Assembly: GCA_965203905.1 (NCBI GenBank)
Contig: CBDBDQ010000005.1
Span: 4,704,001 to 4,768,000 of the forward strand
Length of the DNA stretch: 64,000 nt
Direction: 5' to 3'
Source of the DNA: Spirochaetia bacterium
GTDB taxonomy: Bacteria > Spirochaetota > Spirochaetia > SZUA-6 > Bin103
Part shown: in pieces, positions 4,522-64,000 of the stretch
Position numbering within the stretch: the first letter of the stretch is position 1
Layout of the letters: every line of letters starts with the position of its first letter
Translations under genes and position numbers: made by a program
Notes under the pieces: generated by a model
Database searches by the model: none
Seen by the model: only the letters and a program-made list of their open reading frames with translations
What the model was told of the DNA's origin: nothing

Positions 4522-5451
4522 TCATGAGGTGCCTGATCGTGACGCCGACACGGACGTGATCTCCCGGATCACCTGCAGGATCTTTCGTACTCGCGGCGGG
4601 CTGTCGGTGCCGGGCGATCGTGCCGAGTCCAGCGCAAGGAGCTGCTTCCAGAGTGCCCAACCGCGCGCCCGCTGCCAGACGCCGCCGTCGAGTTGCAGGG
4701 TGGCGCGAAAGATCGCTCTGCTGTCCTCGTCGAGCAGAGTCCAGGCGACCGTCAGATCGCACGCGGGATCCCCCGCCGCCAACTGGCCGAAGTCGATGAC
4801 GGCATGCAGTTGCCCGTCCCGCACCAGCAGGTTGCCGGCGGTGACGTCACCATGCACCCACAACGGATTGCCCTTCCACCGCGATCCCAGCGCCCGGCGC
4901 CACGTTTCCAGCGCCGCAGTGTGATCGATGAGGTCGCCGTACCGATCAAGCAGTCGATCGGTTTCGGCTTGGTAGATGGCGAGATCCCCTCCGCGGTGGA
5001 AGTTCTCCGGCCCCGGTGCCGGGGCATCGGCGGCGTCCACGCCTTGCAGCGCAACCAGAAAGCTCGCGAGCCGGTGCGCAAAGTCGCGCAGGTCGCGAAT
5101 GTTCATCCGCGTGGCAGGCTCTCCGGGGATCCATCGGTTCAGTGCCCAATGCCAGGGGTAGCCTGCCCCAGGCGTCCCCAGAGCGACCGGCTGCGGTATC
5201 GGCAGGGGCAGATGGCCGGCCAGTCTCGGCAGCCACTCATGCTCGGTCAGCAGGCGGGGAGCGTAGCGGCTGGTGCTCGGCAGGCGGGCGCACAGTGAGC
5301 CGCCGACCCGAAAGGTGCGGTTGTCGTGGCCGCCTGGGACGACCGGTGCGACCGGCAATTCCCGATACCGGGGGAACTGCTCGCCAACCAGCCGGCGGAC
5401 GAGGTCCGCATCGATCGCAGTCGCTACGGCGTATTGGCGCCCGGAGCCCAC
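4522..5451 (-). CDS. Aminoglycoside phosphotransferase (APH)-family kinase
   Basis: GHDN, Brenner motif WVHGDVTAGNLL, VIDFG, GDPACDL. Confidence 0.9.
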   Translation of the reverse strand: MGSGRQYAVATAIDADLVRRLVGEQFPRYRELPVAPVVPGGHDNRTFRVGGSLCARLPSTSRYAPRLLTEHEWLPRLAGHLPLPIPQPVALGTPGAGYPWHWALNRWIPGEPATRMNIRDLRDFAHRLASFLVALQGVDAADAPAPGPENFHRGGDLAIYQAETDRLLDRYGDLIDHTAALETWRRALGSRWKGNPLWVHGDVTAGNLLVRDGQLHAVIDFGQLAAGDPACDLTVAWTLLDEDSRAIFRATLQLDGGVWQRARGWALWKQLLALDSARSPGTDSPPRVRKILQVIREITSVSASRSGTS

Positions 5452-5502
5452 GGGTTGATCAGGTCCAGGCCACAGGTAGCCTATCCGCCAGCCTGCGGCG
5501 GC

Positions 5503-7608
5503 TCAGCGGTTCGGAGCGGAGGGCGCCGCGAGCAGCACCAGCGAGCGTGCGCCGGCAGCATACGTCTCCTGCGGCGTGACCAACAATCCCCGGTCGACGC
5601 TGCTGATGTCGTCCGGCGGCCGCAGCGAGGTATCGATCACCCGCCGCCACGCTCCGCCGTGGGGGGCGGCCGGAACCGCGAACTCCCGCTCTGCGGCAGC
5701 GGCGTTGAGGACCAGGTACAGGTCGCCGGCGACGCTTCCCAGGCAGGCCGCCAGGGAGGACGCTCGGAGGCTCCAGTCGGGGGTGCCGCCGCTGGGGCCG
5801 AACCAGCGCACGCCTTCGTCGCGCGGCGCCGTCTCGGCGTAGAACGCGTCCCGCTGCAGCGCCGGGTGCGTGGCACGCAGGGCCGCCAGCGCCCGGCAGA
5901 AGCGGCCCAGCTCGGCGCCGCGCACGGTGGGCGTCCAGTCGAACCAGGACAGCTCGCTGTCCTGGCAGTAGGCGTTGTTGTTGCCCCGCTGCGTGCGCCC
6001 CAACTCGTCGCCGCCCAGCAGCAGCGGTGTGCCCAGGGAAAGGAACAGCGTGGCCAGCAGGTTCTTGCTCTGGCGCAGGCGCACGGCCAGAATCTCGGGA
6101 TCGTCGCTGGGACCCTCCACCCCGTAGTTGGCGCTCGGTTCGTGGTCGCTGCCGTCGCGGTTGCCCTCGCCGTTGGCGTGGTTGTGCTTGGCCGCGTAGC
6201 TCACCAGGTCGTTGAGGGTGAAGCCGTCGTGGGAGGTGATGAAGTTGACGCTGTGAAACGGCCGGCGCCCGTTGCCCTGGTACAGGTCGGAGCTGCCGGC
6301 GAGCCGGGTGGCGAGGTCGGCCGCCACCCCGTCGCCGCGCCAGAAACGGCGCACGTCGTCGCGGAAGCGGTCGTTGAGCTCGGCCCAGCGGTCGCCGGGA
6401 AACTTGCCCACCTGGTAGGCGCCCGCCGCGTCCCAGGCCTCGGCGATGATCTTGGTGTCGCGCAGCACGGGGTCTTCTCCGATCTGCTCCAGGATCGGGG
6501 TATTGGCGCTCAGGTTGCCGGAGCGGTCGCGGCCGAGCACCGACGCCAGATCGAAACGGAAGCCGTCGACGTGCATCTCCACCACCCAGTAGTGCAGGCA
6601 GTCCATGATCATGCGGCGCACCACCGGGTGGTTGCAGTTGAGGGTGTTGCGGCAGCCGGTGAAGTCGAGGTAGCGGCTGCGGTCGGCGCCGTCCAGCAGG
6701 TAGTAGATGCTGTTGTCCAGGCCGCGGTAGGAGAGGGTGGGGCCGCTGGCGTCGCCCTCGGGGGAATGGTTGAACACCATGTCCAGGATCACCTCGATCC
6801 CGGCGGCGTGCAGTTCCCGCACCATGTCCTTGAACTCGGTGACCTGGGCGCCGGGGGTGGTCGCGGAGCTGTACCGCCGCTTCGGTGCGAACAGGCCGAT
6901 CGGGTTGTAGCCCCAGTAGTTCACCAGCGGCTCTGCGTCCGGCGCCACCGCGCCGGCGGCGTACTCGTCCGACTCCTGTACCGGCAGCAACTGGACGGCT
7001 GTGACCCCCAGCGCCTGCAGGTGGGGGATGCGCTCGCACACGCCGCGAAAGGTGCCGGGGTGCGCCACTCCCGCGCTGGGATGAACGGTGAATCCGCGGA
7101 CGTGCACTTCGTAGATCAGGCTGCGCTGCAGCGGGTGCCGCGGGTGGCGTTCGCCGGCCCAGTCGAAGTCGTCGCGCACCACCACGCAGCGCGGTCGCAA
7201 AGCCGGTAACTCGGCCGCCCGCCGGCGCGCGGGGAGGGCGCCGGTGAATGCCTTGGCGTAGGGGTCGAACAGCGGCCGTGCCGGGTCGAAGCGATGTCCC
7301 TCGTCCGGCGCGAAGGGGCCGTCCACGCGGTACAGGTAACACCAGCCGGCGCCAACCCCCTCCACCAGGCCGTGCCAGATGTCCCCGGTCCGGTGTTCCT
7401 CCCGGCACAGGGGGAGCTCCGCGGTCGGCAGAGTAGCCTCCCCGTCTTCGAACAGGAGTAGCGTGACCGCGCTGGCGTGGCGGCTGAACAGCGCGAACTG
7501 GGTGCCGCCGTCGAGCACGGTGGCTCCCAGCGGCAGGGGGCGTCCACGGCTGATCACGGAGCGATAGGTACCACGCGCGCAGCCCGCGTGCAACGGCTTG
7601 ATCGCCAT
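5503..7608 (-). CDS. glgX: Glycogen debranching enzyme (isoamylase, GH13)
   Basis: PLGAT, IYEVHVRGFT, NYWGY, DMVFNH, DGFRFDLAS, AEAWD, HDGFTLND, GNNNAYCQD; start may be GTG 7557. Confidence 0.96.
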   Translation of the reverse strand: MAIKPLHAGCARGTYRSVISRGRPLPLGATVLDGGTQFALFSRHASAVTLLLFEDGEATLPTAELPLCREEHRTGDIWHGLVEGVGAGWCYLYRVDGPFAPDEGHRFDPARPLFDPYAKAFTGALPARRRAAELPALRPRCVVVRDDFDWAGERHPRHPLQRSLIYEVHVRGFTVHPSAGVAHPGTFRGVCERIPHLQALGVTAVQLLPVQESDEYAAGAVAPDAEPLVNYWGYNPIGLFAPKRRYSSATTPGAQVTEFKDMVRELHAAGIEVILDMVFNHSPEGDASGPTLSYRGLDNSIYYLLDGADRSRYLDFTGCRNTLNCNHPVVRRMIMDCLHYWVVEMHVDGFRFDLASVLGRDRSGNLSANTPILEQIGEDPVLRDTKIIAEAWDAAGAYQVGKFPGDRWAELNDRFRDDVRRFWRGDGVAADLATRLAGSSDLYQGNGRRPFHSVNFITSHDGFTLNDLVSYAAKHNHANGEGNRDGSDHEPSANYGVEGPSDDPEILAVRLRQSKNLLATLFLSLGTPLLLGGDELGRTQRGNNNAYCQDSELSWFDWTPTVRGAELGRFCRALAALRATHPALQRDAFYAETAPRDEGVRWFGPSGGTPDWSLRASSLAACLGSVAGDLYLVLNAAAAEREFAVPAAPHGGAWRRVIDTSLRPPDDISSVDRGLLVTPQETYAAGARSLVLLAAPSAPNR

Positions 7609-7679
7609 ACCGCGTCCGTTACCCGTTGGGTGGCGAGCGTCCGGTGGAGGTCTACGCCACGGGGGCATGCCTGGTCGAT

Positions 7680-7985
7680 CCGGACATCGGCTAGGCCGGA
7701 GACGTCGACACCGCCATGGCCATGCTGCACTTCCCGAGCGGCGCGCTGTGCATCATCGAGAACGGCCGCCGCTGCAGCTACGGCGCCGAGGACCGGGTCG
7801 AGGTGTTCGGCGCCCGCGGCCTGGTGCGCACGCAGACGCCTCCCGCCGGACACGTGCAGCGCTTGACTGCCGCGGGGATAGAGCGGGACCGATACACTGA
7901 CAACATCGGCTACGAGGGTTTTGCCGGCGCACTGGACGAGTTCATCGCCGCGGTGCAGGAGGGCCGCCCCGTGGTTGTCGGTGGC
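7680..7985 (+). pseudogene. C-terminal fragment of a Gfo/Idh/MocA (IolG-like) dehydrogenase
   Basis: GDVDTAMAMLHFPSGALCIIENGRRCSYGAEDRVEVFG resembles the IolG C-terminal domain; Rossmann N-terminus absent. Confidence 0.7.
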
Positions 7986-8178
7986 CGGATCATGGATCAT
8001 GGGGTACAACGTAGAGTGTGGTCACCGATACTTGGAGAGTGGCAAGAGCGATGGGCCACTGGATCGCGGACTTGGCTTGAGTGCCGTGGCCCGACCGAGA
8101 TTCTGCTCCTGGTCCTGACCGGGGCCCATGATCGTCTACTATGAGACTTGCGGCAGGACATACACGAACTGAGCACTG

Positions 8179-8658
8179 ATGGTCGCCAAACACTACACAG
8201 ACGAAGAACTTACGACACTCAGAGACATGCCAAAGAGGGTAACCAACCCACGGGCGCGCTGGTCCGAGAAACCGCGGTCGAATCCATCGCATCGTCAACG
8301 TACGTTTATCGTGCGCGGAGGCGAGGACGGGAGCCTGCGATTCCAGGTGTACCAACGTCAGAACCTCCACGACAAAAGCGATTTCTCATGCGGCATTTCA
8401 TACCATCCACAAGGGACCCCGCCATTGACACTGGCGCGCTACAACGGGCCGAGCCACCGGCATGGCGAAATCGCCTATCGTCCGCACGTACATCGTACCA
8501 CTGAACGCGCAATCGCAGCAGGTAAGAAGCCGGAATCCGAGGCAGAGGAGACTGACGGGTTCGATGATCTTGACGGCGCATTGGACCGTCTCATTGAGGA
8601 CTTCAATCTGAGCGGGGTCGAAGTGTCTCGCCACGCTCAGCAGGAGATGTTCACATGA
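8179..8658 (+). CDS. Conserved hypothetical protein, DUF6978-like
   Basis: LARYNGPSHRH...PHVH His-rich motif; lower GC; ATGA overlap with the next gene. Confidence 0.7.
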   Translation: MVAKHYTDEELTTLRDMPKRVTNPRARWSEKPRSNPSHRQRTFIVRGGEDGSLRFQVYQRQNLHDKSDFSCGISYHPQGTPPLTLARYNGPSHRHGEIAYRPHVHRTTERAIAAGKKPESEAEETDGFDDLDGALDRLIEDFNLSGVEVSRHAQQEMFT

Positions 8659-9434
8659 AGTTGGATGTACACTCATTGCAGCGATTACTCTGTGACCGCT
8701 TGTGTGTGGACGTGGGAGTTGAGAAGCGTCCCGACGATACGGTGATGCTGCGCACCCATTTCAGATTTCCCGATGGCGATAGCTACCAGATTCACCTCTC
8801 GGCAACGCCTTCAGGGGCGCTTCGCCTCTCTGACCGTGGTCACACGCTCATGCACATCAGCTATGACCATGACGTTGACTCGTTCGTGGAAGGATCACGA
8901 GGATTGCTCTTGGAACGAATCATGGATGAGAGTGGACTCCAGTGGGACGGAGGAGCATTCTGCTTCGATACGTCGCCTGAGCAACTTCCACAGGCCATGT
9001 TTACGTTCGGGCAAGCGTTAACGAAAATCTATGACCTCACTTTGCTCTCTCGTTCGAGTGTCGCTTCCACGTTCTACGATGACTTGACCGACTTGCTCTT
9101 CAGTGTGGTTGATGAGGCTAGAGTCCAACGTGATTACGAGCCCGCGGTGCCTAATTCGCAAGCCTACCTTGTGGACTACCGAATTGAGAGTAAAGGTGAA
9201 GTGCCTCTTTTCCTATATGGTGTTCCAAATCGTGACAAGGCACGGTTGGCGACCATTATGTTGTCCCACTTTCACCGACATGAGCTTCGATTCGAATCGC
9301 TTCTCGTATTTTCGGACCAAGCTTCCATCCCAAGATCGGATCTCGCTCGCCTCTCGGATGTAGGAGGTGAAATGATTTCCTCGCTGGCGTCGTACGAGTC
9401 TTTCAGTCGAAAGGTCTGGCAGCGCGTCACCTGA
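8655..9434 (+). CDS. DUF1828 domain-containing protein
   Basis: THFRFPDGD and LRLSDRGHTLMHISY N-terminal pattern; coupled to the upstream ORF. Confidence 0.75.
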   Translation: MKLDVHSLQRLLCDRLCVDVGVEKRPDDTVMLRTHFRFPDGDSYQIHLSATPSGALRLSDRGHTLMHISYDHDVDSFVEGSRGLLLERIMDESGLQWDGGAFCFDTSPEQLPQAMFTFGQALTKIYDLTLLSRSSVASTFYDDLTDLLFSVVDEARVQRDYEPAVPNSQAYLVDYRIESKGEVPLFLYGVPNRDKARLATIMLSHFHRHELRFESLLVFSDQASIPRSDLARLSDVGGEMISSLASYESFSRKVWQRVT

Positions 9435-50870: not shown

Positions 50871-52304
50871 TGAGGTGTGTTCGGGTCGGTTGGACAGTCC
50901 GCGGGGTAGTGTAGAGTGTATTCCGTTGGTTGTCAACCTACCCCTCCCTCTCTCAAACAGGTGGCGGTAATGGGGGGTGGGGGTCCGGGGACGGGGGTGT
51001 CCAACGCCTGTGGATATGTGAATAAGTCCCCGCTCCCGATGGCCTGACCACCACCTGCCCCGTGGGCTCGGAACTGGCCGCGGCACCCGTTTCTCCACCA
51101 CTACGCCACCTGCTCTCTGGGCAGCCCACCGGCGCGGTACACCTCGTCCGGCGTGCCTCCATCCAACGCCGAGTGGGGTCGCACTTCGTTGTAGAACTTG
51201 AACCACTGTGCAATCACTCGCTGCGCCTCGAAGCCGTCCTCCAGCTCGTGCAGGTACACCGCCTCGTACTTCAGCGAGCGCCACAGCCGTTCGATGAACA
51301 CGTTGTCCAGACAGCACCCGCGGCCATCCATCGAGCACCGTATCCCGCTCCCTTCCAGCATCCCGGTGAAGGCGACACTGGTGAACTGGCTGCCTTGATC
51401 GGTGTTGAAGATCTCCGGCACGCCGCACAGCCTTCCAGCGCCTCTGCCAACGCTTCCAGGCAGAAGCAGGTATCCAACGTGTTACTCAGCCGCCAAGCCA
51501 GCACCCGCCGGCTCGCCCAATCCATCACCGCCACTAGGTAGAAGTAGCCACCCTGCACCGGGATATAGGTGATGTCCGCGCTCCACACCTGATTCGAACG
51601 CTCGATCGTAACTCCTCTCAGCAGATACGGATACACGCGGTGCTCCGGGTTCGCCACGGTGAGCCGCGGCTTGCGGTAGATCGCCTCCAGCCCCAGCAGC
51701 CGCATCAGCCGCCGCACCCGGTGCCGACCTACCTTCACCCGCTCGCGCGCCAAGTGACGCATCATCTGACGGCTGCCGTAGAACGGGTATTTCCAGGTAC
51801 AACTCGTCGATCCGGCGCATCAACGCCAGGGTCTGCGCGCGCTCCCCGAGCGCTCGGTAGTACACCGTCGAGCGGCTCACAGCGAGCAGTTGGCATTGCC
51901 GGCTCACACGCAACCTCTGATGCTCGCGGTCAATCATCCTCACTCGCTCGGCCCGGCTCAGCTCCCGAGCCCGCGCGCTAAAAATCGCGCTCCACGGTCA
52001 ACTCGCCGATCTTGGCGTGCAGGTCGTGCACGATCTCCTCGTGGTCCTTCTGACTGCGCTTGGTGGCGCCGGCGAACACTTCCTCAAGACCCGCCTGCGC
52101 TTGCCGCTTCCACCCTGAGACCTGGTTCGGATGCACTTGATACTTGGCTGCGATCGCCTGGATCGTGCGCTCCCCGCGCAGCGCTTCGGTCGCTACCTTG
52201 GCTTTGAACTGCGCTGTGAATCGGCGTCGTTTCGCCATTCCGTTGGCCCTCCTCATGGCCTGGAATACACTTATCATCCTGCCCGACTTTTCGGGACCAC
52301 CTCA
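50871..52304 (-). mobile_element. IS3-family insertion sequence, transposase frameshifted
   Basis: Imperfect IRs tgaggtg(t)g...gacag and ctgccc...ggaccacctca; orfA RRRFTAQFKAKVA (51978-52237); orfB fragments WSADITYIP, FNTDQGSQF, DNVFIERLWRSLKYE, YN..RPHSAL in three frames. Confidence 0.93.
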
Positions 52305-52406
52305 CTGATCCTCGTGAACCGTGGCGAGCCATCATGTTCGGTATGGACGCAAGACAGTTCGCAATTCCTCGTTGGTTTCAGTTATGTTCACGGATTGGAT
52401 AAAACG

Positions 52407-52670
52407 ATGAATGAAAAACCTAACCACGACACGATTGTTCCAACGGGATTTACCGTTGGGAGCGATGGCTCGGTGACGACTCTTACTTTCGAGACTGGTG
52501 ATAAACCGATAATGCTTCGATTTCCGCATCCAGGTTGGGAAGCACAGAAGGTAGAACTTTGTTTAGTCGCTTACGAGCTTCTGGCGAAATCGGACCCGAG
52601 TGACGCCGGACTCGTGCAACGGTTGGCGATTGATCTTCGCGACGTGATTCAGGACGTACAGACAATGTAA
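52407..52670 (+). CDS. Hypothetical protein
   Basis: 87-aa ATG ORF in low-GC island. Confidence 0.45.
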   Translation: MNEKPNHDTIVPTGFTVGSDGSVTTLTFETGDKPIMLRFPHPGWEAQKVELCLVAYELLAKSDPSDAGLVQRLAIDLRDVIQDVQTM

Positions 52671-52964
52671 GACCTCCACAGTCCCCCTCGTAGGGGTTGG
52701 GATTGATCGCAAAGTATTCCGCCACAAGGCGGGAAGGAGGGAACGTTCCATAATCATAGCAGCACTGATTGTGCTGGTCGCTACGGCGGGACTCGCCGTG
52801 AAAGAGACATAAACAAACCTCCCACGTCCCCGCCCCGGGGAAGGGAGGTTGGAATTGACAGTTTCGAAAAACAATGATTGAGCCTCTAAAGGAGGGAGTA
52901 TATGTCACGAGTGACGCTCTTGTTCTTGTTCGTTTGTACCTTGGCCTCACCTTAAGATACAACC

Positions 52965-53423
52965 GTGGTCGAACCTGGGATGTTAGTGTACTTATTCAGG
53001 TTCTCCAATAGTGCTGACGCGGTCGAAGAAATCCTCAACCATACTCTTGTTGTTGGCACCGATACATCGGCCATGACTGCCGATCGCAGCAGCGCAGTAG
53101 CGAATACAACGACAGTGACACACATCACTTACGATTCTACATCCGACGTCTATTTCATTCTTGACGAAGATGGGAATGTTACAAACGTCGAAGAGGTGCC
53201 ACACGGCGAGAAACCGAAATTCGGAGATAAATTTAAGAAAGTTGCGGAAAAGGGTTTGTTTCTTTTTGAAGCGGCCGGTGATGTGGTCGAATTTCTCTCT
53301 TTCGCTTTATGCAGACATGGTGTGACACACGATCTCGATGTGTATTTCGCACCGCCAATACCTGTGGGTGTGGGAACGACGGCTACCCTAAAGGTCGAAC
53401 GTCAATGCGATGACGGGCCATAG
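52965..53423 (+). CDS. Hypothetical protein
   Basis: 152-aa ORF with protein-like composition; true start uncertain. Confidence 0.45.
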   Translation: MVEPGMLVYLFRFSNSADAVEEILNHTLVVGTDTSAMTADRSSAVANTTTVTHITYDSTSDVYFILDEDGNVTNVEEVPHGEKPKFGDKFKKVAEKGLFLFEAAGDVVEFLSFALCRHGVTHDLDVYFAPPIPVGVGTTATLKVERQCDDGP

Positions 53424-53485
53424 TTGGCCGGAATGGTTGACCGGTTGGGAATGTACATGCTATATTCCCAACTGGAGGATAGGTA

Positions 53486-53779
53486 ATGAGCAGCGATATA
53501 CACTTCGACAACTACACCGATCATCAGACGTCGATGGCTTTCGTGCTGACGACGACGGTTCTGATCGCAAATGCCGATGACACCGAATTGGTGCAAAAGG
53601 TTCGTGACAAACTCGCTAATCTTGGTTCAAAACACACCGGAGGAAATGATGACTTCGCGGCAGCCCTTCAGTTGTCCAGGGAAATCATCGATTATACTGA
53701 AGGAATAGTGTTACCAGGACAGGCTTTCGACGTGACGTTAGGGTTTTCTTTTCCTCCGCCGCCAAAAAAGACAAAATAA
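53486..53779 (+). CDS. Hypothetical protein
   Basis: GGAGG..AGG RBS, ATG, 97 aa. Confidence 0.55.
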   Translation: MSSDIHFDNYTDHQTSMAFVLTTTVLIANADDTELVQKVRDKLANLGSKHTGGNDDFAAALQLSREIIDYTEGIVLPGQAFDVTLGFSFPPPPKKTK

Positions 53780-53997
53780 CCGAATCTAAGATACCCGCAG
53801 ACACGGCTTTTGTAGCGTGTGCTCAGACGGCGGCAAACCGGCTGCGCGATAAACCTGGAATGGCGCAAGCTCTGGAAGTGCTTGCTCAACACATGCGGGA
53901 CAGGGCGTTGGCGTTTGTTCCAAATATGATCGAGGGAGAGCAAGCAAAATTGTTTGTCTTAATTGGGTCAATCCGGGAAGACTTAACACCTCCCACT

Positions 53998-54226
53998 GAG
54001 TCGGGTTAGTCAAGTATATTGTCACCCTTCCGTCAATAATGCACGCGCTAACTCAGTTGCCACTGAAGAGCGTCACGATCTCGTATCCCAGATTCACAAA
54101 TACATCGACCGTCAAGTTCAGGGAAACCACGAGAACACGGTCCTGTACAAGGGCGCGGCAGAGGCGCTACTGAGTCTTCTGGATTCTCCGTCAGAGTCGG
54201 TTGGTTAGTCAAGTATATTGTTACCC
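53998..54226 (+). repeat. Pair of about 30-bp direct repeats
   Basis: gagtcgg(ttg)gttagtcaagtatattgtYaccc at 53998-54027 and 54194-54226. Confidence 0.8.
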
Positions 54227-55162: not shown

Positions 55163-55399
55163 GTGCCCAATCATTTCGCTCCTAACCGAACGACAGCTTC
55201 GGCTCGTGATTCTCTTCCTGCAATCTTGAGGACGCCATCGGTGTTGGCTCTGATAGGACTCTCTCGCACGACGTTGTGGCGACGCGTACGTGCCGGCCAC
55301 TTCCCAGCGCCAGTCAGGCTCGGGGGCGAGGGATCCCGAGCCGTCGGCTGGCGACGTGAGGATGTCGAACGATGGTTGGATGCGTTGCCGAATGCGTAA
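55163..55399 (+). CDS. alpA: AlpA family regulator (second copy)
   Basis: ILRTPSVLALIGLSRTTLWRRV..GHFPAPVRL...AVGWRREDV. Confidence 0.88.
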   Translation: MPNHFAPNRTTASARDSLPAILRTPSVLALIGLSRTTLWRRVRAGHFPAPVRLGGEGSRAVGWRREDVERWLDALPNA

Positions 55400-55638: not shown

Positions 55639-56444
55639 TCAGATCGCGCGCGAGCGCCAGGTATCGAGGAACTCGCGCAGGCGCGCTCTCCGCGGTCGCT
55701 TGAAGATGTCGTCCGGGGGACCGCGCTCGATGACCTCGCCGCCATCCATGAACACCACCTCGTCGGCCACGTGGGCGGCGAATCCCATCTCGCGGGTGAC
55801 CACGACCATGGTCATGCCGTCGCTCGCGAGTTCCTGCATCACCTGCAGCACTTCGCCCAACAGTTCCGGATCCAGCGCCGACGTGGGCTCGTCGAAGTAC
55901 ATCACGTGCGAACGCATCGCCAGCGCCCGCGCGATGGCGGTGCGCTGCTGCTGGCCGCCGGAGAGCTGCGCCGGTTATTGTGGGCCTTGTCGTCCACCCC
56001 TACCTTGCCCAGCATCTCCATGCCGATCTGCTCCGCGGCCCGCTTGCCGAGTTTTTTGACCACCCGCAACGCCTCGGTCACGTTTCCAAGCGCGGTCTTG
56101 TGCGGCCACAGGCTGTAGTGCTGGAACACCATGCCGATGACGCTGCGCACCGAGTCGACGTTGCGGTCGCTGTCGGGCACCCGCCTGCCGTCGACCTCGC
56201 GGTAGCCGAGCAGCCGGCCCTCGATGACCACCCGACCATCGTCATACCGGTCGAGGAACGCCATGCACCGCAGCAGGGTGCTCTTGCCGGAGCCGGACGG
56301 GCCGATTACGCAGACCACGCGCGAGGAATCGACGGCGAGGTCGATGCCGCGCAGGACGTGAACCGCGCCGAATCGCGTGTGCAGGCCCTCTACCAGGACT
56401 ACGGGCTCTTGTTCCATTGCCACTCCCGCCGTATCGCCGCTCAT
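55639..56444 (-). pseudogene. Polar amino-acid ABC ATPase (GlnQ-like), frameshifted
   Basis: [22 protein letters not shown] and [11 protein letters not shown] in different frames. Confidence 0.88.
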
Positions 56445-57098
56445 GCTACTCTGCTGAACCGGCGCTCCAGGAGGCCGCCGGAGAACGCGATGCCCTCGAT
56501 GACCAGCCAGTAGAGCAGGGCGACGGCGACGTAGGGCTCGATCACGGCGAAGGTCTCATTCACCATCTGCGTGGTGTTCTTGGTCAACTCGGCGACCGTG
56601 ATGATCGACAGGAGTGCCGACTCCTTGACCAGGATGATCACCTGGTTGGTCGATGGCGGGATGATCAGCGTCAGCATCTGCGGGATCTGGATGCGGGCAA
56701 CGATCAGCCGACGTGGGATGCCCGAGCATACGCGCGGCTTCGACCTGTCCGGACGGGATCGACAGGAAGCCGGCCCGGAAGATCTCCGCGAAGTAGCCGC
56801 CGCCATAGACGCCGAGGCCGATGACTCCGACCGGTTCGGCGTCCATGGTCAGCCCGATCGCCGGGCCGCCGTAGTACAGGATGAACAGCAGCCCCAGGAT
56901 CGGCGTGCCGCGCATGACCTCAATGTACGCCCGGCACAGAAGCTGGACGGGGCGCAGCGGCAGGCTGTAGAGGAGCGCTGCCGCGAGCCCGGCGGCCACG
57001 GCCAGAAGCGAAGCGAGGGCGCAGATGCTTACCGTCGTCCACAGTCCCGCCAGCAGTAGCGGACCGTAGCGGAGTACGATGTCGATGTCGAACGACAC
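56441..57098 (-). pseudogene. Polar amino-acid ABC permease, frameshifted near 56720
   Basis: YIEVMRGTP, AEIFRAG..SIPSGQVEAA, then KESALLS in another frame. Confidence 0.85.
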
Positions 57099-57517
57099 GC
57101 TCTTGCCCAGGACCGGCTAGCGCGGCGTGGCGCCGGCGTGGCGGCGCTCAAAGTAGGCCCCGGCGCGGGCCAATGCACTGGTAAACGAGCGGCTGATCAT
57201 CTGCGAGCGGCAGCGGCTGTAGGAGAAGCAGGACGGTGCCGGAGCCCTGGCTGTGGGCTGGCCGGTAGCGCTTCCTGATCGGCGCGAGATCGAAGCGGAG
57301 CTGTCGGTTCGGATAGGCTTCGCCAGGGATCCTCGTTGGCGTCGTGTGAGCACCATTGGCATTTGGACGGGGCGGACTCCCGGAACGATTCGGCCGCGGT
57401 CAGGACGAACACGGGCTGCGGCAGCCGCCGCTGTAGGAGATCACGATGGTGAGGATGTTGCCGGTCACCGCGCGGCGGCATTCAGGGCGAACGGATCGGT
57501 CTGCCGATCGGCAGTGG

Positions 57518-57548
57518 GGCCTAAGGCTGGCCTAAGGCGGCCTAAGGC
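57518..57548. repeat. Triple GGCCTAAGGC tandem repeat
   Basis: Three copies at 57518, 57529 and 57539. Confidence 0.8.
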
Positions 57549-57753
57549 CTATCCCGAGCCCTTGGTGCAACTCGCCGCAGCGGATCGAGTCAGGATGGCC
57601 GACGGCGCCGCGGCAGTCGGGTCGCGATGCAGGCCGCCACCACGAGCAGCGCAAGGAAGCAGAAGAACGGCCCAGGGCCGCGCTTCCCGTTCGATTTATC
57701 ACTGACAGCAAACAAACGGGTCCTCCGCCGTCACGACGGCAATCCTACCTGCG

Positions 57754-57783
57754 TTGACTGATCTGGCAATACCTCCCCACAAT
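57754..57783 (+). promoter_or_regulatory. Putative sigma70 promoter
   Basis: TTGACT-N18-CACAAT about 10 nt upstream of the structured leader. Confidence 0.5.
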
Positions 57784-57793
57784 CCTTCCAACC

Positions 57794-57940
57794 GAGAAAG
57801 GGACTTGCGGCTGGGCTTCATGCCGGGTCGCTGGTCAATACAACAGCTCCATGTGGGGCAGGGAGTAGCTACCCGGTCCCGGAGCGAATAGCCAGAAACC
57901 CAAGGATACCTGTGTGCCCACGCATGCGAGTCCCTTTCTC
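57794..57940 (+). ncRNA. Candidate structured RNA (c4/c4-2 antisense-like leader)
   Basis: 15-bp closing stem gagaaagggacttgc/gcgagtccctttctc; inner ccgggt/acccgg stem with an AATACAA bulge and a gctcc/ggggc hairpin. Confidence 0.55.
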
Positions 57941-57991
57941 AAACGGCCCGGCACCTTCCGGGGTGCGGGCGACTACGAGGAAGGAGCCACC

Positions 57992-58114
57992 ATGCTCTAC
58001 CGTCATCCCGTCGCAGAGCCCTTCGTGATCATCACCGTGCCGTGCGGGTCACAGCACCGGCACGTGCGGTGCGCGCGCCGTCGCCTCCGCTGCCGTAGCA
58101 ACGGCGGCCGGTAA
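57992..58114 (+). CDS. 40-aa leader ORF
   Basis: AAGGAG RBS; stop overlaps the ankyrin gene start (TAATG). Confidence 0.55.
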
Positions 58115-59634
58115 TGCCCGGTCGAGTTATAGCCGCGGCTGCCATGGCGGCAACCCTGACGCTGTTAGGCTGCGAGATGCCGCCAGGTCCACCGGGTCCA
58201 GCCGGTGAGAGGGGCCTACAGGGTGAGAGGGGCCCACAGGGTGAGCGCGGGCCACAGGGTGAGACTGGAGTTCCCGGACCCGAGGGCCCGGTCGGGCCGA
58301 CCGGACCACAGGGCGTGCCTGGAGACGACGGGGTACCTGGGCCGTCTCGAACGCTACCCAGTATTGAAAGTTGCAGGTACCCCTTCTGGTGGGGTGAGAT
58401 CGACTACATAGACGCCGAGTCATGTATCGATCAAGGGGTAGACCTGAATGACCACCGCGGCCATTGGCCTTTTTTGCACAACGCTGCTGCCAGACAAGAT
58501 GACCATCGGATTATCGGTCTCATGGTTGATCGCGGTGGTGCCAATATTGAAGCCGAGGACTCCAACGGTGAGAGGGCGGTCTATGCAGCAACACGAAACG
58601 ACAATCAAATGGCCATAGAGATGCTCATCATCTTGGGCGCTGATCTCGGCGTCCGGTACGGATATCAAAAAAGATCAGTTCTTCATCAGGCCGCCAGAAT
58701 CAGCAACTATGGTGTGATAAAAGCCCTTTTGGATGCAGGGATGAACGTAAATATAAAGAGTGGAATCGGACAAACTCCGCTGCAGGAAGCCGCGAGCCAA
58801 AACACATCTTCCGTAGTCAGGATGCTCATCGAGGAAGGAGCAAACGTAAACGTTACACAAGGTGGAGGATCGCCCCTATATCTCGCGGCCTACGACAATG
58901 AGGCAGATGTAGTAGAAACTCTAATTCGACATGGGGCTCACATCAACCCACCTGGGCTGACCCCACTACACGCTGCTGCTATAGGAAATCCCAGGCCTGA
59001 AGTGGTTTGGATGTTGTTGCACCACGGTGCTGATCCTAATTCTAGAACCCGGGACCAAGGCGAAACGCCTTTATACTGGGCTGCCAGAGGAGATAATTAT
59101 AGCGCCACCATAGCACTACTGAACGCCGGCGCTGACCCTCTGATAACTGACAACTTGGGATTCACCCCCCTGCACGCGGCAGCGACACTAGGGGACGGCG
59201 TGGCAGTCGCATTGGCTCTCATGTCGATAGGTGACGTGGCCGTAGACCATAGGACGATTACTCAGGTTACTCCGTTACATCTGGCAGCCCAGGCCAATAC
59301 GAACGTCATAATGTTGAAGTGTCTATTGCGCCAGGGAGCCGATATTGAGGCTCGAGATGTATGGCAACTGACTCCCCTACACCGAGCTGCACGTTGGAAC
59401 AATAACGCCGATGTTATCAGCGTTCTCTTAGATTCCGGTGCGAACATAAGAGCAGAAGACAAGAACGGTATGACCCCCTGGGACTTGGCGCAGAACAACG
59501 ACGCCATCAAGGGAACCGAAGCTTACTGGCGCCTAAGGCCCGATAGCAGCAGCTCGAGCTGGTGGATTGGCCAAGCTGTCCTTGATGCGAAGGCTGCGGT
59601 CCTGGCCGTACCAAGCATAGGAGTGTCTCGATGA
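58114..59634 (+). CDS. Lipoprotein with collagen triple-helix repeat and ankyrin repeats
   Basis: Lipobox LLGC; 18 consecutive Gly-X-Y triplets; about 11 TPLH-type ankyrin repeats. Confidence 0.93.
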
Positions 59635-60578
59635 ACTTGAACCTAAACGGCGCCGGTAATAGACATGAGCGTTGCCGGAGAGTTCCGCAAGCCGCGCATT
59701 GTATCGTGGCGGTGGTGTTCGGAAGTCTCTGGTTTATGGTCGCCGGGCGCGCTGTCTCGTTGCCCGATTGTCTGCCGGACTGTGCCGGTGCCGACCTGGC
59801 CGGCATTGATCTGAGCGTGTCCACCTTGACCGGCGCGAACTTGGAAGGGGCGGACTTACACCAATCCAACATGTTCGGCGTCAGGCTGACCGGCGCGAAC
59901 CTACGCAACGCCAAGCTGTACGGCGCCGACTTGGGCGAGGCAGACCTGAGCGGTGCTGACTTGAGCCGTGCCATCCTTTGGGCTGCCCATATGTCGGCTG
60001 CCGACCTAAGCGGTGCACAACTGTTCGGCGCCAACTTGGTAAGCACCAATCTGGTAGGCGCTAACCTGAGCGACGCTGACCTCAGTGGTGTGCAACTAGT
60101 GGGTGCCAGCTTGGCAAGAGCGGACCTGCGCCACGCTCGGCTGGCCCGAGCGGACCTGACTGGCGCGTTCCTGACGTACGCCAACTTGACTGGCGCTCTG
60201 CTGGTTAATGCGAGTCTGATCCATGCCAATCTGAGCAACGCCAACTTGGAGAGTGCCAGCATGATGGACGCGGATCTGAGTCATGCCCGCCTGCGCCACG
60301 CGGATCTGAGCGGCGCGGTATTGACCGGCGCCAACCTGGAAGGCGCGGACCTGCGCCATGCTGTCCTGCGCCACGCTGTCCTGCTCGGTGTTGACCTGAG
60401 CGGCGCGGACTTGAGCGCCGCTGACCTGCGTCAAGCTAGACTGGGGACCGCGAACCTATCCGGCGCCGACCTGACTGCTGCTGACTTGAGCGGAACCAAC
60501 CTGGAGGGCGTGATCTTGGCCGATGTGCAGGGTTGCGATACGGCAACGCAGCCGAGCCCTGTACTGCCCGGTTGCTGA
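59631..60578 (+). CDS. Pentapeptide repeat protein, probably exported
   Basis: Long A(D/N)LxG repeat tract flanked by Cys pairs; hydrophobic N-terminal segment; ATGA overlap. Confidence 0.92.
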
Positions 60579-60852
60579 GGGCCGGCCGCGCGCCGCGTGA
60601 AACGGTGCCACACCTCTGCTCTCGCCCGTTTTGCGTGCCGTGAACATGAGTTGGAACGAGACGGGGTAGGCCGGTTGTGCTAGCTATATAGAGGCCTGTG
60701 ATCAGGGCCGACGAGATCAGGACCGCCAGGCGTCCGCGGTGGACCTTCCGGCTGAAAGCCGATGTGGCCCGAGCTGAAGCGCGCTGCGGGTGAGAGCCTC
60801 CCAGGCCGCGGCCGCCACGTCGGGATGGCACGCGGTCGACGCGCTCGCTCAC

Positions 60853-61296
60853 TCACCCGTCGCCGTCCTCCACGAGATAGTCGTCCAGGGTGACGGACTC
60901 GCAGAGGATCAGCTTCTTGTCGAGCGCTATGCGGGCTTTGTGCAGGCGGCGCACATCGGCGTTGTTGCCGGCCGCTACTATCTTCGACACTCGTTGATGG
61001 GTGACCCCGAACCGATACGCGATCTCTTTCAGGGAAAGGCCCTGCGCGTACAACTGGTGCATACGCATCTTCCGGATGTTCGGTTGGCGAGCGGCGGCAC
61101 GCGGCACATCGCCCGCTGACACCGGCCCGGCCGCGGTTGACACCGCCTGCAGGTGATTCAAGCGATGGCGGTGAACCGCTGCGTAGCTCACCCCGTTGCG
61201 CCGTCCCACCTCCCGCAGCGACATCCCTGCCGCCAGATCAGCCTCAACTCGTTGCTTGATTACCGGGTCTCTGCAGATCGAACAGGATCGCGCCAC
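60853..61296 (-). CDS. Phage-like double-HTH protein
   Basis: CSIC...GMSLREVGRRNGVSYAAVHRH..NHL and GLSLKEIAYRFGVTHQRVSKI. Confidence 0.75.
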   Translation of the reverse strand: MARSCSICRDPVIKQRVEADLAAGMSLREVGRRNGVSYAAVHRHRLNHLQAVSTAAGPVSAGDVPRAAARQPNIRKMRMHQLYAQGLSLKEIAYRFGVTHQRVSKIVAAGNNADVRRLHKARIALDKKLILCESVTLDDYLVEDGDG

Positions 61297-61483
61297 TTAT
61301 ACACCACCACCATGTTACGACACTGCTCCGGTTCCACTCAATGGCCTGGACTTTCTGGTAGTGTCTCAGTTTGAACTGAGACACTGCCGACTTTCTGTTA
61401 CGATTCACAACGCGAGGCACCTGCTACGAAAATCACAACGGTTCAACGGTTCGGTGCCTGTATCAAGAGCAAAATCGTATGTG

Positions 61484-61552
61484 GCAACACTATCGTCAAC
61501 ACGAACGTCAACCTTTCTGTCAACGTTTTCTGCAACGCTTTTCTGCTACTTT
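61484..61552 (+). repeat. Degenerate 11-13-bp tandem repeats with (gt)caac cores
   Basis: gcaacactatc gtcaacacgaac gtcaacctttct gtcaacgttttct gcaacgcttttct gctacttt. Confidence 0.65.
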
Positions 61553-62003: not shown

Positions 62004-62675
62004 ATGGATACCCCCCACCCCCCTGACAAACGGATAGAACCTCTCACTGAGCCAGAGGAAAAGACTGGCCGTAAGTACTTTGAACGCAACACAAAGAACG
62101 CCAGAGCCGGGCGCATCCTCTGGTTCCGGGTGCGGGTCCAGGGCATGTCAACACATGACGCCTGGATGTCGATCTTCCCGAACGCCGGCAAGAACCGCCG
62201 CAGCATCCAGCAACAGGCGTCTCGATTCCTGCGCTGGTACGAGGAAAACTACCCCGGCACGTTCCACGAAATCGCCGCCGCGTTCGACCTGACGCCGCAG
62301 CGCATGGGCGAGTTGCTCGACGAGATGTTCCATGCCAAGGTCTGGCGCTGGGACCCGAAACAGGAGAAGCACGTCGAGACGGACGAGCCCAACTGGAAGG
62401 TGCGCACCGCCGCTTTCGACCGGCTGCTGAAGCTCATGGAGAAGGATGAGAAGTGGCGCCGGCAGTTCATCGAGCAGGACGAGAGCCGGCCCGTCAACCT
62501 CGCCACCATCCCCGAGTTCAAGACGATGGAAGAGTTCGAGGCGTGGAAGGCCAACCGCGACATCCTCAAGGAGATCGAGGAGAAGCGCAAACAGGCGATG
62601 GAAGCCCATGAGCGCGTCGTCGAGGCCGAGGGCCGGAAGTTGCCCCCGCCGCCGACGAATGGCTCCCACCACTGA
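62004..62675 (+). CDS. Hypothetical protein (phage-like, helical)
   Basis: 223-aa ORF with strong GC3 bias; no catalytic motif recognised. Confidence 0.7.
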   Translation: MDTPHPPDKRIEPLTEPEEKTGRKYFERNTKNARAGRILWFRVRVQGMSTHDAWMSIFPNAGKNRRSIQQQASRFLRWYEENYPGTFHEIAAAFDLTPQRMGELLDEMFHAKVWRWDPKQEKHVETDEPNWKVRTAAFDRLLKLMEKDEKWRRQFIEQDESRPVNLATIPEFKTMEEFEAWKANRDILKEIEEKRKQAMEAHERVVEAEGRKLPPPPTNGSHH

Positions 62676-62748
62676 GTGAACGGCTCTGAGTGAACGACAG
62701 ATGATGCGGCTCTGCGCGGGCTGGCGTGTGCCGACATGTGTCGACAAA

Positions 62749-62957
62749 TATGGATACCCCTCAGCCCCCTGCGAAACGGCCAGAACCCCTTACAGAACCA
62801 GAGGAAAAGGAAGGCGTAATTAACTTGAACGCAACACAAAGAACGCCAGAACCGGGCGCATCCTGTGGTTCCGGGTGAAGGTCCAGGGCATGTCGACACA
62901 TGACGCTTGGGTCTCGATCTTCCCGAACGCCGGCAAGAACCGCCTGCAGCATCCAGT
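62749..62957 (+). pseudogene. Frameshifted partial duplicate of the 5' part of 62004-62675
   Basis: tatggataccc...cagcatccag is colinear with 62003-62210. Confidence 0.85.
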
Positions 62958-63670
62958 CTCAGGCGTCTCGCGCCGCGCGGTTGCATCCGGTATACTCACG
63001 ACGATCAGCGCTTCCGCCGGCCCTGGTTCCTTTTCTGTCGGGGCTCTGGTCCGGGTGCCCGTTGAGTTGCGGAAACGACACTCGGGCACCTGTTCTTTTC
63101 TCCAGCGGGAATCGCCGCTCCTGTAGCCACGGCGCGCTGGCAGCGCTGAGGTGGTGCCCATACACCATCTCGCACGTGTGACGGCTCCTGGGGCGCCTGA
63201 GCGACTGGGCAAGCAGCGAAGGCGGCCCGGGGGTCCCCACCGGGACCTCCCCTTGCTACTTCTCACCGATACCCAGGACGCAAGCTCGATGGCGGTGATG
63301 CGTTGGTTCAGGACGAACGTGGCGTCGCCGGCCGTTCAAAGCGCCAGTCGTTCTGGTTGGGCATCGTTCCTTAGACGCGAAAAGCCGCCTCCCCCCGACA
63401 CTCGGCAGGGGAAGGCGGCAGTTACGGAGGGGTGTTACCCCAAGCACAAGCCTATCGGTGTGCGCCGGGGCACGGCAAGTAGCGGGCGGAAGGGACAAGG
63501 TGGGAGGCCCGCCCGCGATCCACGGGGTACGGCTCCCACGTCCGCAGCTCCGGGATTCGCCGCGGCGAGGGCCTTCGATCATCCCAGTTCGCGGCAACGC
63601 AGCCGCTCCAGGCGCTCGGTTTCGGGTGGGAGGCCATCCCGCTGTCGGCCGCCCTGGTCTCCCACCAGGT

Positions 63671-64000
63671 TCAACCAGGTGCGTCTGCAGTCGACGGGCC
63701 CGCGCGCCCAGGCGGCTCGGTTTCGGAGTCAGGTGGGGGATCATCCCGCGAATCCGCGGGTTCGACCGACACCAGCATGGGCGGTGGTGCCATGTAGGGC
63801 ACGTGCATCAACTCCGCGGCGCGGCGCTTGGCTTCCTCGGGGCGGCGGTCATAGCGCTGGGTGGTCTGGACGTTCGCGTGCCCCGCGAGCTGCTGCACAC
63901 TGGAAATATCGGCACCGGCATCGAGCATCTCGCCGACGAAGCTGCGGCGCAGGTCGTGCGGCGAGAACTGTTTGATGCCGGCGAGCTTGGCGAGGTAGCG
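63671..64000 (-). CDS. Tyrosine recombinase (XerC/D-like), C-terminal part; gene extends beyond the window
   Basis: [10 protein letters not shown]...[23 protein letters not shown] (HxxR, H, Y). Confidence 0.92.

Follow-up and report, generated by a model that had tools for sequence, protein, structure and literature searches.

In the genome of a Spirochaetia bacterium (GenBank assembly GCA_965203905.1, contig CBDBDQ010000005.1), we analyzed a stretch of 64,000 nucleotides (nt; positions 4,704,001 to 4,768,000 of the forward strand; hereafter, the window), in which a structured leader RNA at 57790-57990 precedes an operon encoding a collagen-ankyrin lipoprotein and a pentapeptide-repeat protein. 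Our results indicate, with a probability that we place at roughly 0.6, that this leader is a copy of an apparently undescribed family whose members combine a promoter with a structured leader, and that it acts in cis, after transcription, as a module with two mutually exclusive folds. An earlier interpretation of the same DNA (the original prediction) had proposed a phage-type RNA switch wired to host-interaction genes. The wiring stands, as a conserved leader with its own promoter lies before an operon of eukaryote-like surface proteins; the phage-type circuit does not, and the leader is not a phage immunity RNA. Positions below refer to the window, and features lie on its plus strand unless otherwise indicated.

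Anatomy and covariation of the leader

Copies of the family display a common order of elements. From the 5' side, this order comprises a promoter, the 5' arm of a long stem (LS), a strand X (GYCGGGUY), the 5' strand of helix P2, a loop with the sequence (G)AAUACAACA and the 5' strand of helix P3; these are followed by a variable bulge, the hairpin P4 with a GUAGCU loop, the 3' strand of P3, a GAAUA loop and the 3' strand of P2. The remaining part consists of a variable linker, the LS 3' arm, 3-4 nt (AAAC in the window), a strand Y (GGCCCGGC) plus ACC, a strand X', the Shine-Dalgarno sequence and the start codon. In the window copy, the LS 5' arm, whose sequence is free, occupies 57794-57817, and X, the 5' strand of helix P1 (GCCGGGUCG, 57822-57830), is almost invariant in the family. 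The conserved core, as described by a covariance model of the family (R1; 143 positions and 29 pairs, built from 25 copies), spans 57831-57895 and includes P2 (57831-57836 with 57891-57895), the 5' loop AAUACAACA (57837-57845), P3 (57846-57850 with 57881-57885), the P4 hairpin (57856-57880, with its invariant GUAGCU loop at 57865-57870) and the 3' loop GAAUA (57886-57890). The variable linker from P2 to the LS 3' arm covers 57896-57914 and the arm itself 57915-57940, and Y, the 3' strand of P1 (CGGCCCGGC, 57944-57952), pairs with either X or the downstream X'; the hairpin formed in the latter case (GCCCGGCACC / GGGGUGCGGGC, 57946-57970) stands just before the ribosome-binding site (RBS). The R1 match in the window extends from 57818 to 57958 and scores 120.3 bits. 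As a whole, the leader RNA (57785-58000) folds with a predicted energy of -102.9 kcal/mol (z = -5.29), a stability reached by none of 200 shuffled sequences.

The helices were evaluated in two independent sequence sets, one from metagenome-assembled genomes (MAGs; 81 matches) and one from metagenomes, both aligned by fitting to the R1 model. In the MAG set, 86.5% of the cells at paired positions were compatible with pairing, against 77.3% in shuffles, and compensatory changes were observed in 19 of the 29 pairs; none of 500 shuffles reached the observed value in any of five measures, and pairing dropped to 29-50% when the partners were slid. By helix, compensatory changes were found in all six pairs of P2, four of the five pairs of P3 and all seven pairs of the lower part of P4, and in none of the three pairs at the P4 tip. 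The metagenome set repeated this result (86.9% paired against 78.4%, with 18 of the 29 pairs compensatory and 0/500 shuffles). Thus, P2 to P4 covary strongly and P1 weakly in both sets. Furthermore, RNAalifold applied to a MAFFT alignment that had not been fitted to the model recovered P1, P3 and the P4 tip. The original prediction had staked its case on the existence of homologs and of covariation, and both were found, the latter in the MAG and metagenome sets alike.

Two alternative pairings within the leader had also been put forward. The pairing of catgtggggca with tgcccacgcatg is sound in the window, where its predicted energy of -21.9 kcal/mol is the best in a row of 96; across 96 copies, cognate strands scored no better than non-cognate ones (-10.4 and -10.2 kcal/mol, respectively), and it is therefore not a conserved feature. 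The ccgggt/acccgg pairing exists in the window as well, formed by strand X and a P4 strand, and of 97 copies, 41 have CCCGG after the P4 loop.

The long stem and the promoter

In the window, the stem that closes the leader consists of 15 bp (57794-57808 with 57926-57940) and encloses 147 nt, and RNAduplex extends it to 23 pairs (57794-57816 with 57915-57940). Because the LS sequence differs in every copy and is thus not alignable, its arms were scored by comparing the pairing of each 5' arm with its own 3' arm and with those of other copies. Among 25 copies of the same family as the studied genome, cognate arms averaged -40.2 kcal/mol (sd 7.7) against -21.6 kcal/mol (sd 5.3) for non-cognate arms, the cognate partner being the best in its row in 18 of 25 cases. 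For 73 copies from other phyla, the values were -34.1 (sd 5.8) and -21.8 (sd 5.2) kcal/mol, with the cognate partner best in 40 rows; the cognate energy was below -25 kcal/mol in 69 of these 73 copies, compared with 25% of the non-cognate pairs. The LS has a length of 20-28 bp and pairs the predicted 5' end of the transcript with the stretch preceding Y.

The promoter-like box also occupies a fixed position. Of 98 copies, 45 have a TTGAC word in the 75 nt that precede X, located in 41 of these 45 at a distance of 58-70 nt. In the copies inspected by eye, 6-8 nt lie between the end of the -10 box and the LS 5' arm, and therefore the transcript probably begins at the foot of the LS. The window copy carries a sigma-70-like promoter at 57754-57783 (TTGACT at 57754-57759, a spacer of 18 nt, and CACAAT at 57778-57783), from which transcription would start at approximately 57790-57793, at the foot of the long stem; a scan of 4.5 kb detected four promoter-like sites, against 1.0 +/- 1.0 in shuffles.

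The region between Y and the start codon was examined for further pairing. The reverse complement of the Y 5-mer is present within 32 nt downstream in 32 of 76 copies, whereas 7.1 would be expected. No pairing signal was obtained between the LS 5' arm and the 70 nt after Y (cognate -21.7, non-cognate -21.6), and the LS 3' arm gave a weak one with the same 70 nt (-23.6 and -20.4, respectively). An extension of P2 through pairing of X with the linker showed no consistent pattern by eye.

Two predicted, competing folds

The geometry of these elements presents a structural puzzle, namely two near-universal helices that would exclude each other. The LS 5' arm is separated from X by 0-4 nt and the LS 3' arm from Y by 3-4 nt, so that a stem of 20-28 bp keeps X from reaching Y; judged from this geometry, LS and P1 are mutually exclusive and should not coexist in one molecule. 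Both helices are nonetheless near-universal in the family, and X, Y and X' are almost invariant while the LS, P2, P3 and P4 drift.

In the mechanism that we favor, the LS would form by default and bury the 5' end, a type of structure that may protect an RNA against 5'-end-dependent decay, and as a generic long duplex it would also be of the type cut by RNase III. In this default fold, the conserved core would be displayed at the tip of the LS, and Y would pair with X'. In the other fold, X would pair with Y, and the resulting P1 would close the core as in sRNA-Xcc1, a known RNA discussed below. The choice between folds would be set by a trans-acting factor that recognizes the core or by processing of the LS 5' arm, and would in turn decide the fate of the mRNA or its translation; candidate events for flipping the fold include removal of the 5' arm, an RNase III cut within the LS, and pairing in trans.

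Distribution of the family

The studied genome contains seven copies of the leader, six of them in addition to the one described above (E <= 1e-3). Within the same family, R1 yielded 70 matches in 18 of 24 genomes, with 1-13 copies per genome, and by blastn the leader core was found in 10 of the 23 other genomes of the family and in 0/37 genomes of other families of the order. R1 matched none of 68 genomes from seven other families of the order and none of a sample of 150 other genomes from across the phylum.

When 185,579 species, each represented by one genome, were screened with a motif pattern, at least 94 stretches were detected. R1 confirmed 78 of the 80 loci listed, with 81 matches of 32-100 bits that nearly all cover the full model; two loci (L076 and L108) were not confirmed by R1. 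Among the matches listed, the MAG labels correspond to Spirochaetia, Acidobacteriota lineages, Alpha- and Gammaproteobacteria, Gemmatimonadota, Latescibacterota, Binatia, Nitrospirales, Chloroflexota/Dehalococcoidia and Syntrophobacterales, for a total of at least nine phylum labels. Many matches are on contigs that measure 3-7 Mb, and this breadth is therefore unlikely to be explained by mis-binning. When the same pattern was applied to metagenomes, 111 stretches were obtained, and R1 confirmed 69 of the 80 loci that were fetched; these represent 54 distinct sequences, none of which is present in the MAG set. In the phylum of the studied genome the leader was found in one family only, where it is present in 17 of 23 genomes, yet it is carried on chromosome-scale contigs by MAGs of eight other phyla, which points to the horizontal spread of a complete expression module and not just of genes.

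Some of the leader-bearing MAGs belong to lineages whose names refer to sponges, such as Candidatus Poriferihabitaceae (genera Poriferihabitans and Spongiihabitans), and several other isolate-label series in the set are presumably sponge MAGs. The Candidatus Poriferihabitaceae are MAGs recovered from a sponge (PMC12859430).

Genes behind the leader

Downstream genes were sought in 106 copies with a crude open reading frame (ORF) finder, which takes the first start codon with a Shine-Dalgarno-like word upstream. An ORF of at least 60 aa follows the leader in 77 of the 106 copies, starting at a median of 30 nt past the end of the model and within 60 nt in 63 of the 77. A signal-peptide-like N-terminus was recognized in 55 of these 77 ORFs, 25 of them with a lipobox, in comparison with 105 of 680 control ORFs. 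Pfam analysis of 76 of the 77 ORFs (one exact duplicate was dropped) revealed leucine-rich repeat (LRR) families with up to three members, two members each of CsgG, He_PIG, PEGA, Big_9 and Calx-beta, and Ig-like proteins, as well as single matches to collagen, peptidases M10, M30 and M48, a trypsin-like protein and an outer-membrane barrel. A lipoprotein with 54% identity (61/112, E 2e-39) stands behind the leader in one MAG labelled Chloroflexota and one labelled Spirochaetia; thus, leader and gene move together.

Behind the leader, the studied genome has three genes that share an N-terminus combining a lipobox with collagen, namely the window gene, a gene of 925 aa on contig C3 and one further gene; the first two are followed by pentapeptide genes. 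The locus on C3 (L270, G000:C3:40000-50500; 5258-9394, minus strand) represents a second module composed of a leader, the 925-aa lipobox-collagen protein and a pentapeptide protein with the same LP(D/E)C..PDCAGA start as that of the window. A 5'-degenerate copy of the leader and a paralog of the 40-aa ORF that opens the window operon follow the pentapeptide gene of this locus.

Some copies show other arrangements. In three loci from Latescibacterota-labelled MAGs (L117, L088 and L129), Y is succeeded after about 70 nt by a run of 7-8 U with no ORF following, and the sequence before this run is complementary to the linker inside the leader; these copies may be stand-alone versions of the RNA. 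In a subset read by eye (L011, L017, L020, L031, L005 and window 57979-58003), the ORF begins with ML(H/Y), with complementarity between its codons 2-4 and the Shine-Dalgarno sequence (GGAGGUGGA..AUGCUCCACC type).

Relation to known RNAs

In Rfam, the leader is matched by a single model, sRNA-Xcc1 (RF02221; sRNA, small RNA), with 24.3 bits against a gathering score of 53. From 20 related loci, one matched sRNA-Xcc1 (L010, 24.8 bits) and 19 had no match, and a search of the whole 8-Mb genome with the sRNA-Xcc1 model (E <= 10) returned the window leader as its sole match. The Infernal alignments cover model positions 1-87 end to end with the leader. Shared features include a P1 of the GCCGGG/CCCGGC type, P2, an internal loop with AAUACAA on its 5' side and GAA on its 3' side, an inner hairpin, and ACC followed by U after P1; the P1-closed fold with the AAUACAA/GAA loop is a trait of sRNA-Xcc1, and the same helices are supported in the leader family. 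In Xanthomonas, the integron cassette with the widest distribution carries sRNA-Xcc1 upstream of symE (bioRxiv 10.1101/2025.06.18.660453), and Xylella has seven copies of this RNA, of which five form a tandem array in an island (PMC12189769). Both RNAs are multi-copy, horizontally moved and placed upstream of a gene. Conversely, the leader family additionally has a P3/P4 extension whose GUAGCU loop is invariant, an LS that would exclude P1, a fixed promoter and a fixed RBS for exported-protein genes, and it occurs under nine phylum labels and not in Proteobacteria alone. No symE-like family was among the listed Pfam results of the downstream genes, integron integrase and attC sites not having been part of the search. 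Because its score is under half of the threshold, the leader was not assigned to sRNA-Xcc1.

Other bacterial leaders act through a 5'-terminal or long duplex, for instance the 5' stem-loop of ompA, the RNase III sites in the leaders of pnp and rnc, and the stems that flank rRNA, and the mRNAs of type I toxins such as tisB and zorO are processed at their 5' end. The leader family resembles the former in having, at the predicted 5' end, a duplex of at least 20 bp with free sequence. The resemblance to the toxin mRNAs would be one of logic, with an inert primary fold that gives way to a second fold after 5' processing. All of these differ from the leader family in that none is known to have its conserved core, its multi-copy state across phyla or its tie to exported proteins.

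No description of the motif was found in Rfam 15 or in the literature searched, supplementary files of the articles being outside that search. Retrons, attC sites, miniature inverted-repeat transposable elements, hepatitis delta virus-like ribozymes and yybP-like elements were considered and discarded, since they agree poorly with the genes found downstream, with arms that vary between conserved flanks and with the absence of Rfam matches.

Weighing the proposed two-fold cis-acting leader against its alternatives

Several observations weigh against a cis-acting leader with two folds. Concerning the folds themselves, forcing P1 to form costs on average +17.2 kcal/mol (sd 6.2, range 2.9-32.2, n = 92), and therefore the calculations suggest that P1 may never form in the full-length RNA; the X:Y pairing never appeared in the free minimum-energy folds. 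Helix P1, with 97% pairing in the MAG set, has compensatory changes in two of its eight pairs in the MAG and metagenome sets alike, and an exact Y:X' hairpin is limited to 32 of 76 copies. The predicted accessibility of the Shine-Dalgarno sequence is the same in both folds (0.41 and 0.44, n = 59, Wilcoxon p = 0.44), and thus a simple switch in which the P1 fold masks the RBS receives no support. The start of the transcript and the processing of its 5' arm, both of which this explanation draws on, are predictions, as are the exclusion between LS and P1, the factor and the regulatory output. As for the genes, the leader is followed by only a shorter ORF in 17 of the 106 copies and by no ORF with a Shine-Dalgarno-like start in another 12; two downstream genes encode EcoRI-type methylases, which are not exported; and the signal-peptide heuristic is crude, as is the control, which consisted of ORFs with 150 aa or more taken from the same loci.

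A possible but unlikely alternative is a small-molecule riboswitch, in which the core and P1 would constitute the aptamer for a metabolite of the habitat, and the ligand would stabilize P1 over Y:X' and set the expression of surface proteins. The general architecture agrees with this, as the leader is a covarying structured domain in the 5' untranslated region, on the strand of the gene, whose core contains a highly conserved asymmetric internal loop and hairpin loop flanked by covarying helices and is closed by a P1 with a competing partner for its 3' strand beside the RBS; moreover, the distribution tracks a shared habitat rather than phylogeny (0/150 other genomes of its own phylum, and MAGs of eight other phyla). 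The leader departs from riboswitches in that its downstream genes lack a common metabolic theme, a very stable stem locks out P1 by about 17 kcal/mol, and the predicted exposure of the RBS is unchanged between states. We regard with similar reserve a broader proposal of a habitat-specific sensor RNA, in which the core would bind a sponge-derived small molecule or a factor shared by symbionts, switch the LS-locked leader and thereby set the output of exported and eukaryote-like proteins, the cassette being traded among symbionts of at least nine phyla.

It is improbable that the leader serves as the source of a trans-acting sRNA, which would be released as a stable core by RNase III cleavage of the LS, in the manner in which flanking stems release rRNA, and whose freed X would then pair with Y in any leader-bearing mRNA, linking all copies in a cell. 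The LS suits a sequence-blind enzyme of this kind, being a near-continuous duplex of 20-28 bp (23 pairs in the window), with about two helical turns and no dependence on sequence. X, Y and X' hardly vary, in contrast to the drifting helices that pair only in cis; this invariance is, however, equally well explained by a constraint among three strands in cis. Some copies lack a downstream ORF, inspection by eye shows a U-run some 70 nt past Y in the three copies from Latescibacterota, and sRNA-Xcc1, the closest RNA known, has been described as an sRNA; nevertheless, most copies are found at a fixed short distance before a start codon.

Very improbable is an element acting at the level of DNA, where the inverted repeat and the core would mark the boundary of a mobile cassette, as a site of recombination or transposition, with no role as RNA. 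The family is multi-copy and has spread across phyla together with its downstream genes, and the window copy sits among integrase and AlpA genes. Ends recognized by a transposase or a recombinase normally retain their sequence; the LS arms differ completely between copies of one genome, with only their complementarity kept. G-U pairs are retained on the sense strand, the promoter before and the Shine-Dalgarno sequence after the element are fixed parts of the module, and the collections of plasmids and phages yielded no match.

Hardly credible, finally, is the antisense immunity RNA of the phage P1 c4 or phage P4 CI type (C4 antisense RNA, RF01695), controlling a short ORF coupled to downstream genes, that the original prediction had taken as its model: the window does contain a structured RNA, a short ORF and start codons that overlap stop codons, but the short ORF is not part of the leader family and no similarity in sequence or structure to those RNAs, which belong to a phage context with antirepressor or kil-type genes, was detected. 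A cmscan of 57000-61500 and of the 20 related loci against Rfam gave no C4-type match at E <= 10, and neither a blastn search of phage (50,697) and plasmid (72,556) records nor a motif scan of the viral contigs in IMG/VR yielded a match. The proposed antirepressor slot is likewise not borne out, the downstream genes encoding exported proteins of many kinds and not antirepressor or kil-type products.

The window operon and its surroundings

Beyond the leader, the layout read by the original prediction was recovered as described, with the promoter, the 147-nt stem-closed leader, the hairpin before the RBS, the 40-aa ORF and the TAATG and ATGA overlaps all in place; Pfam likewise bore out the collagen-ankyrin lipoprotein and the pentapeptide protein (Collagen, Ank and Pentapeptide). 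The Shine-Dalgarno sequence GGAAGGAG (57979-57986) precedes the 40-aa leading ORF (57992-58114), whose stop overlaps the start of the next gene as TAATG. This ORF occurs behind only two copies of the leader, both in this genome, and its sole detectable relative is the paralog in the same genome (G000:C3:45015-45092; E 0.007, 65% over 23 aa). The next gene (58114-59634) encodes a predicted lipoprotein of 506 aa with a lipobox LLGC, as read from the translation, and collagen triple-helix repeats followed by ankyrin repeats. The last gene (59631-60578), whose start overlaps the preceding stop (ATGA), encodes a pentapeptide-repeat protein of 315 aa with an N-terminal hydrophobic segment. GC content drops to 0.51-0.55 in the ankyrin-coding part (58500-59500), compared with about 0.65 in the collagen part and the neighboring sequence, and the ankyrin head may be a graft on a stalk composed of lipobox and collagen.

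Ahead of the -35 box, at a distance of about 205 nt, GCCTAAGGC occurs in three tandem copies (57519-57548), with a fourth copy at 59531; the total of four in the window compares with 0.45 expected, and the tandem copies could be a regulator-binding array. Further upstream, on the minus strand (55639-57098), are genes for an amino-acid-type ABC transporter, each split into two overlapping frames (ATPase, 55902-56444 and 55639-55917; permease, 56556-57098 and 56441-56806), which look like frameshifted pseudogenes. An AlpA-like gene (55163-55399, plus strand), a helix-turn-helix gene (60853-61296, minus strand) and the end of a phage-integrase-family gene (63671-64000, minus strand) give the operon an island-like setting. 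Other features of the region are a GC content of 0.47-0.51 at 52-54 kb (52250-54000), a terminator-like hairpin of 15 bp (61356-61389, plus strand) and two tandem partial copies of an ORF starting with MDTP(H/Q)PP..EPLTEPEEK (62004-62990).

Significance

If the explanation favored here is correct, one RNA module would control the expression of surface and eukaryote-like proteins in unrelated bacteria that share a habitat. The leader would then provide a handle on when ankyrin, collagen and LRR proteins are made in organisms that are not culturable, yet whose RNA is open to probing in vitro and in reporter hosts. The module would also recast RNAs of the sRNA-Xcc1 type as possible cis-acting leaders.

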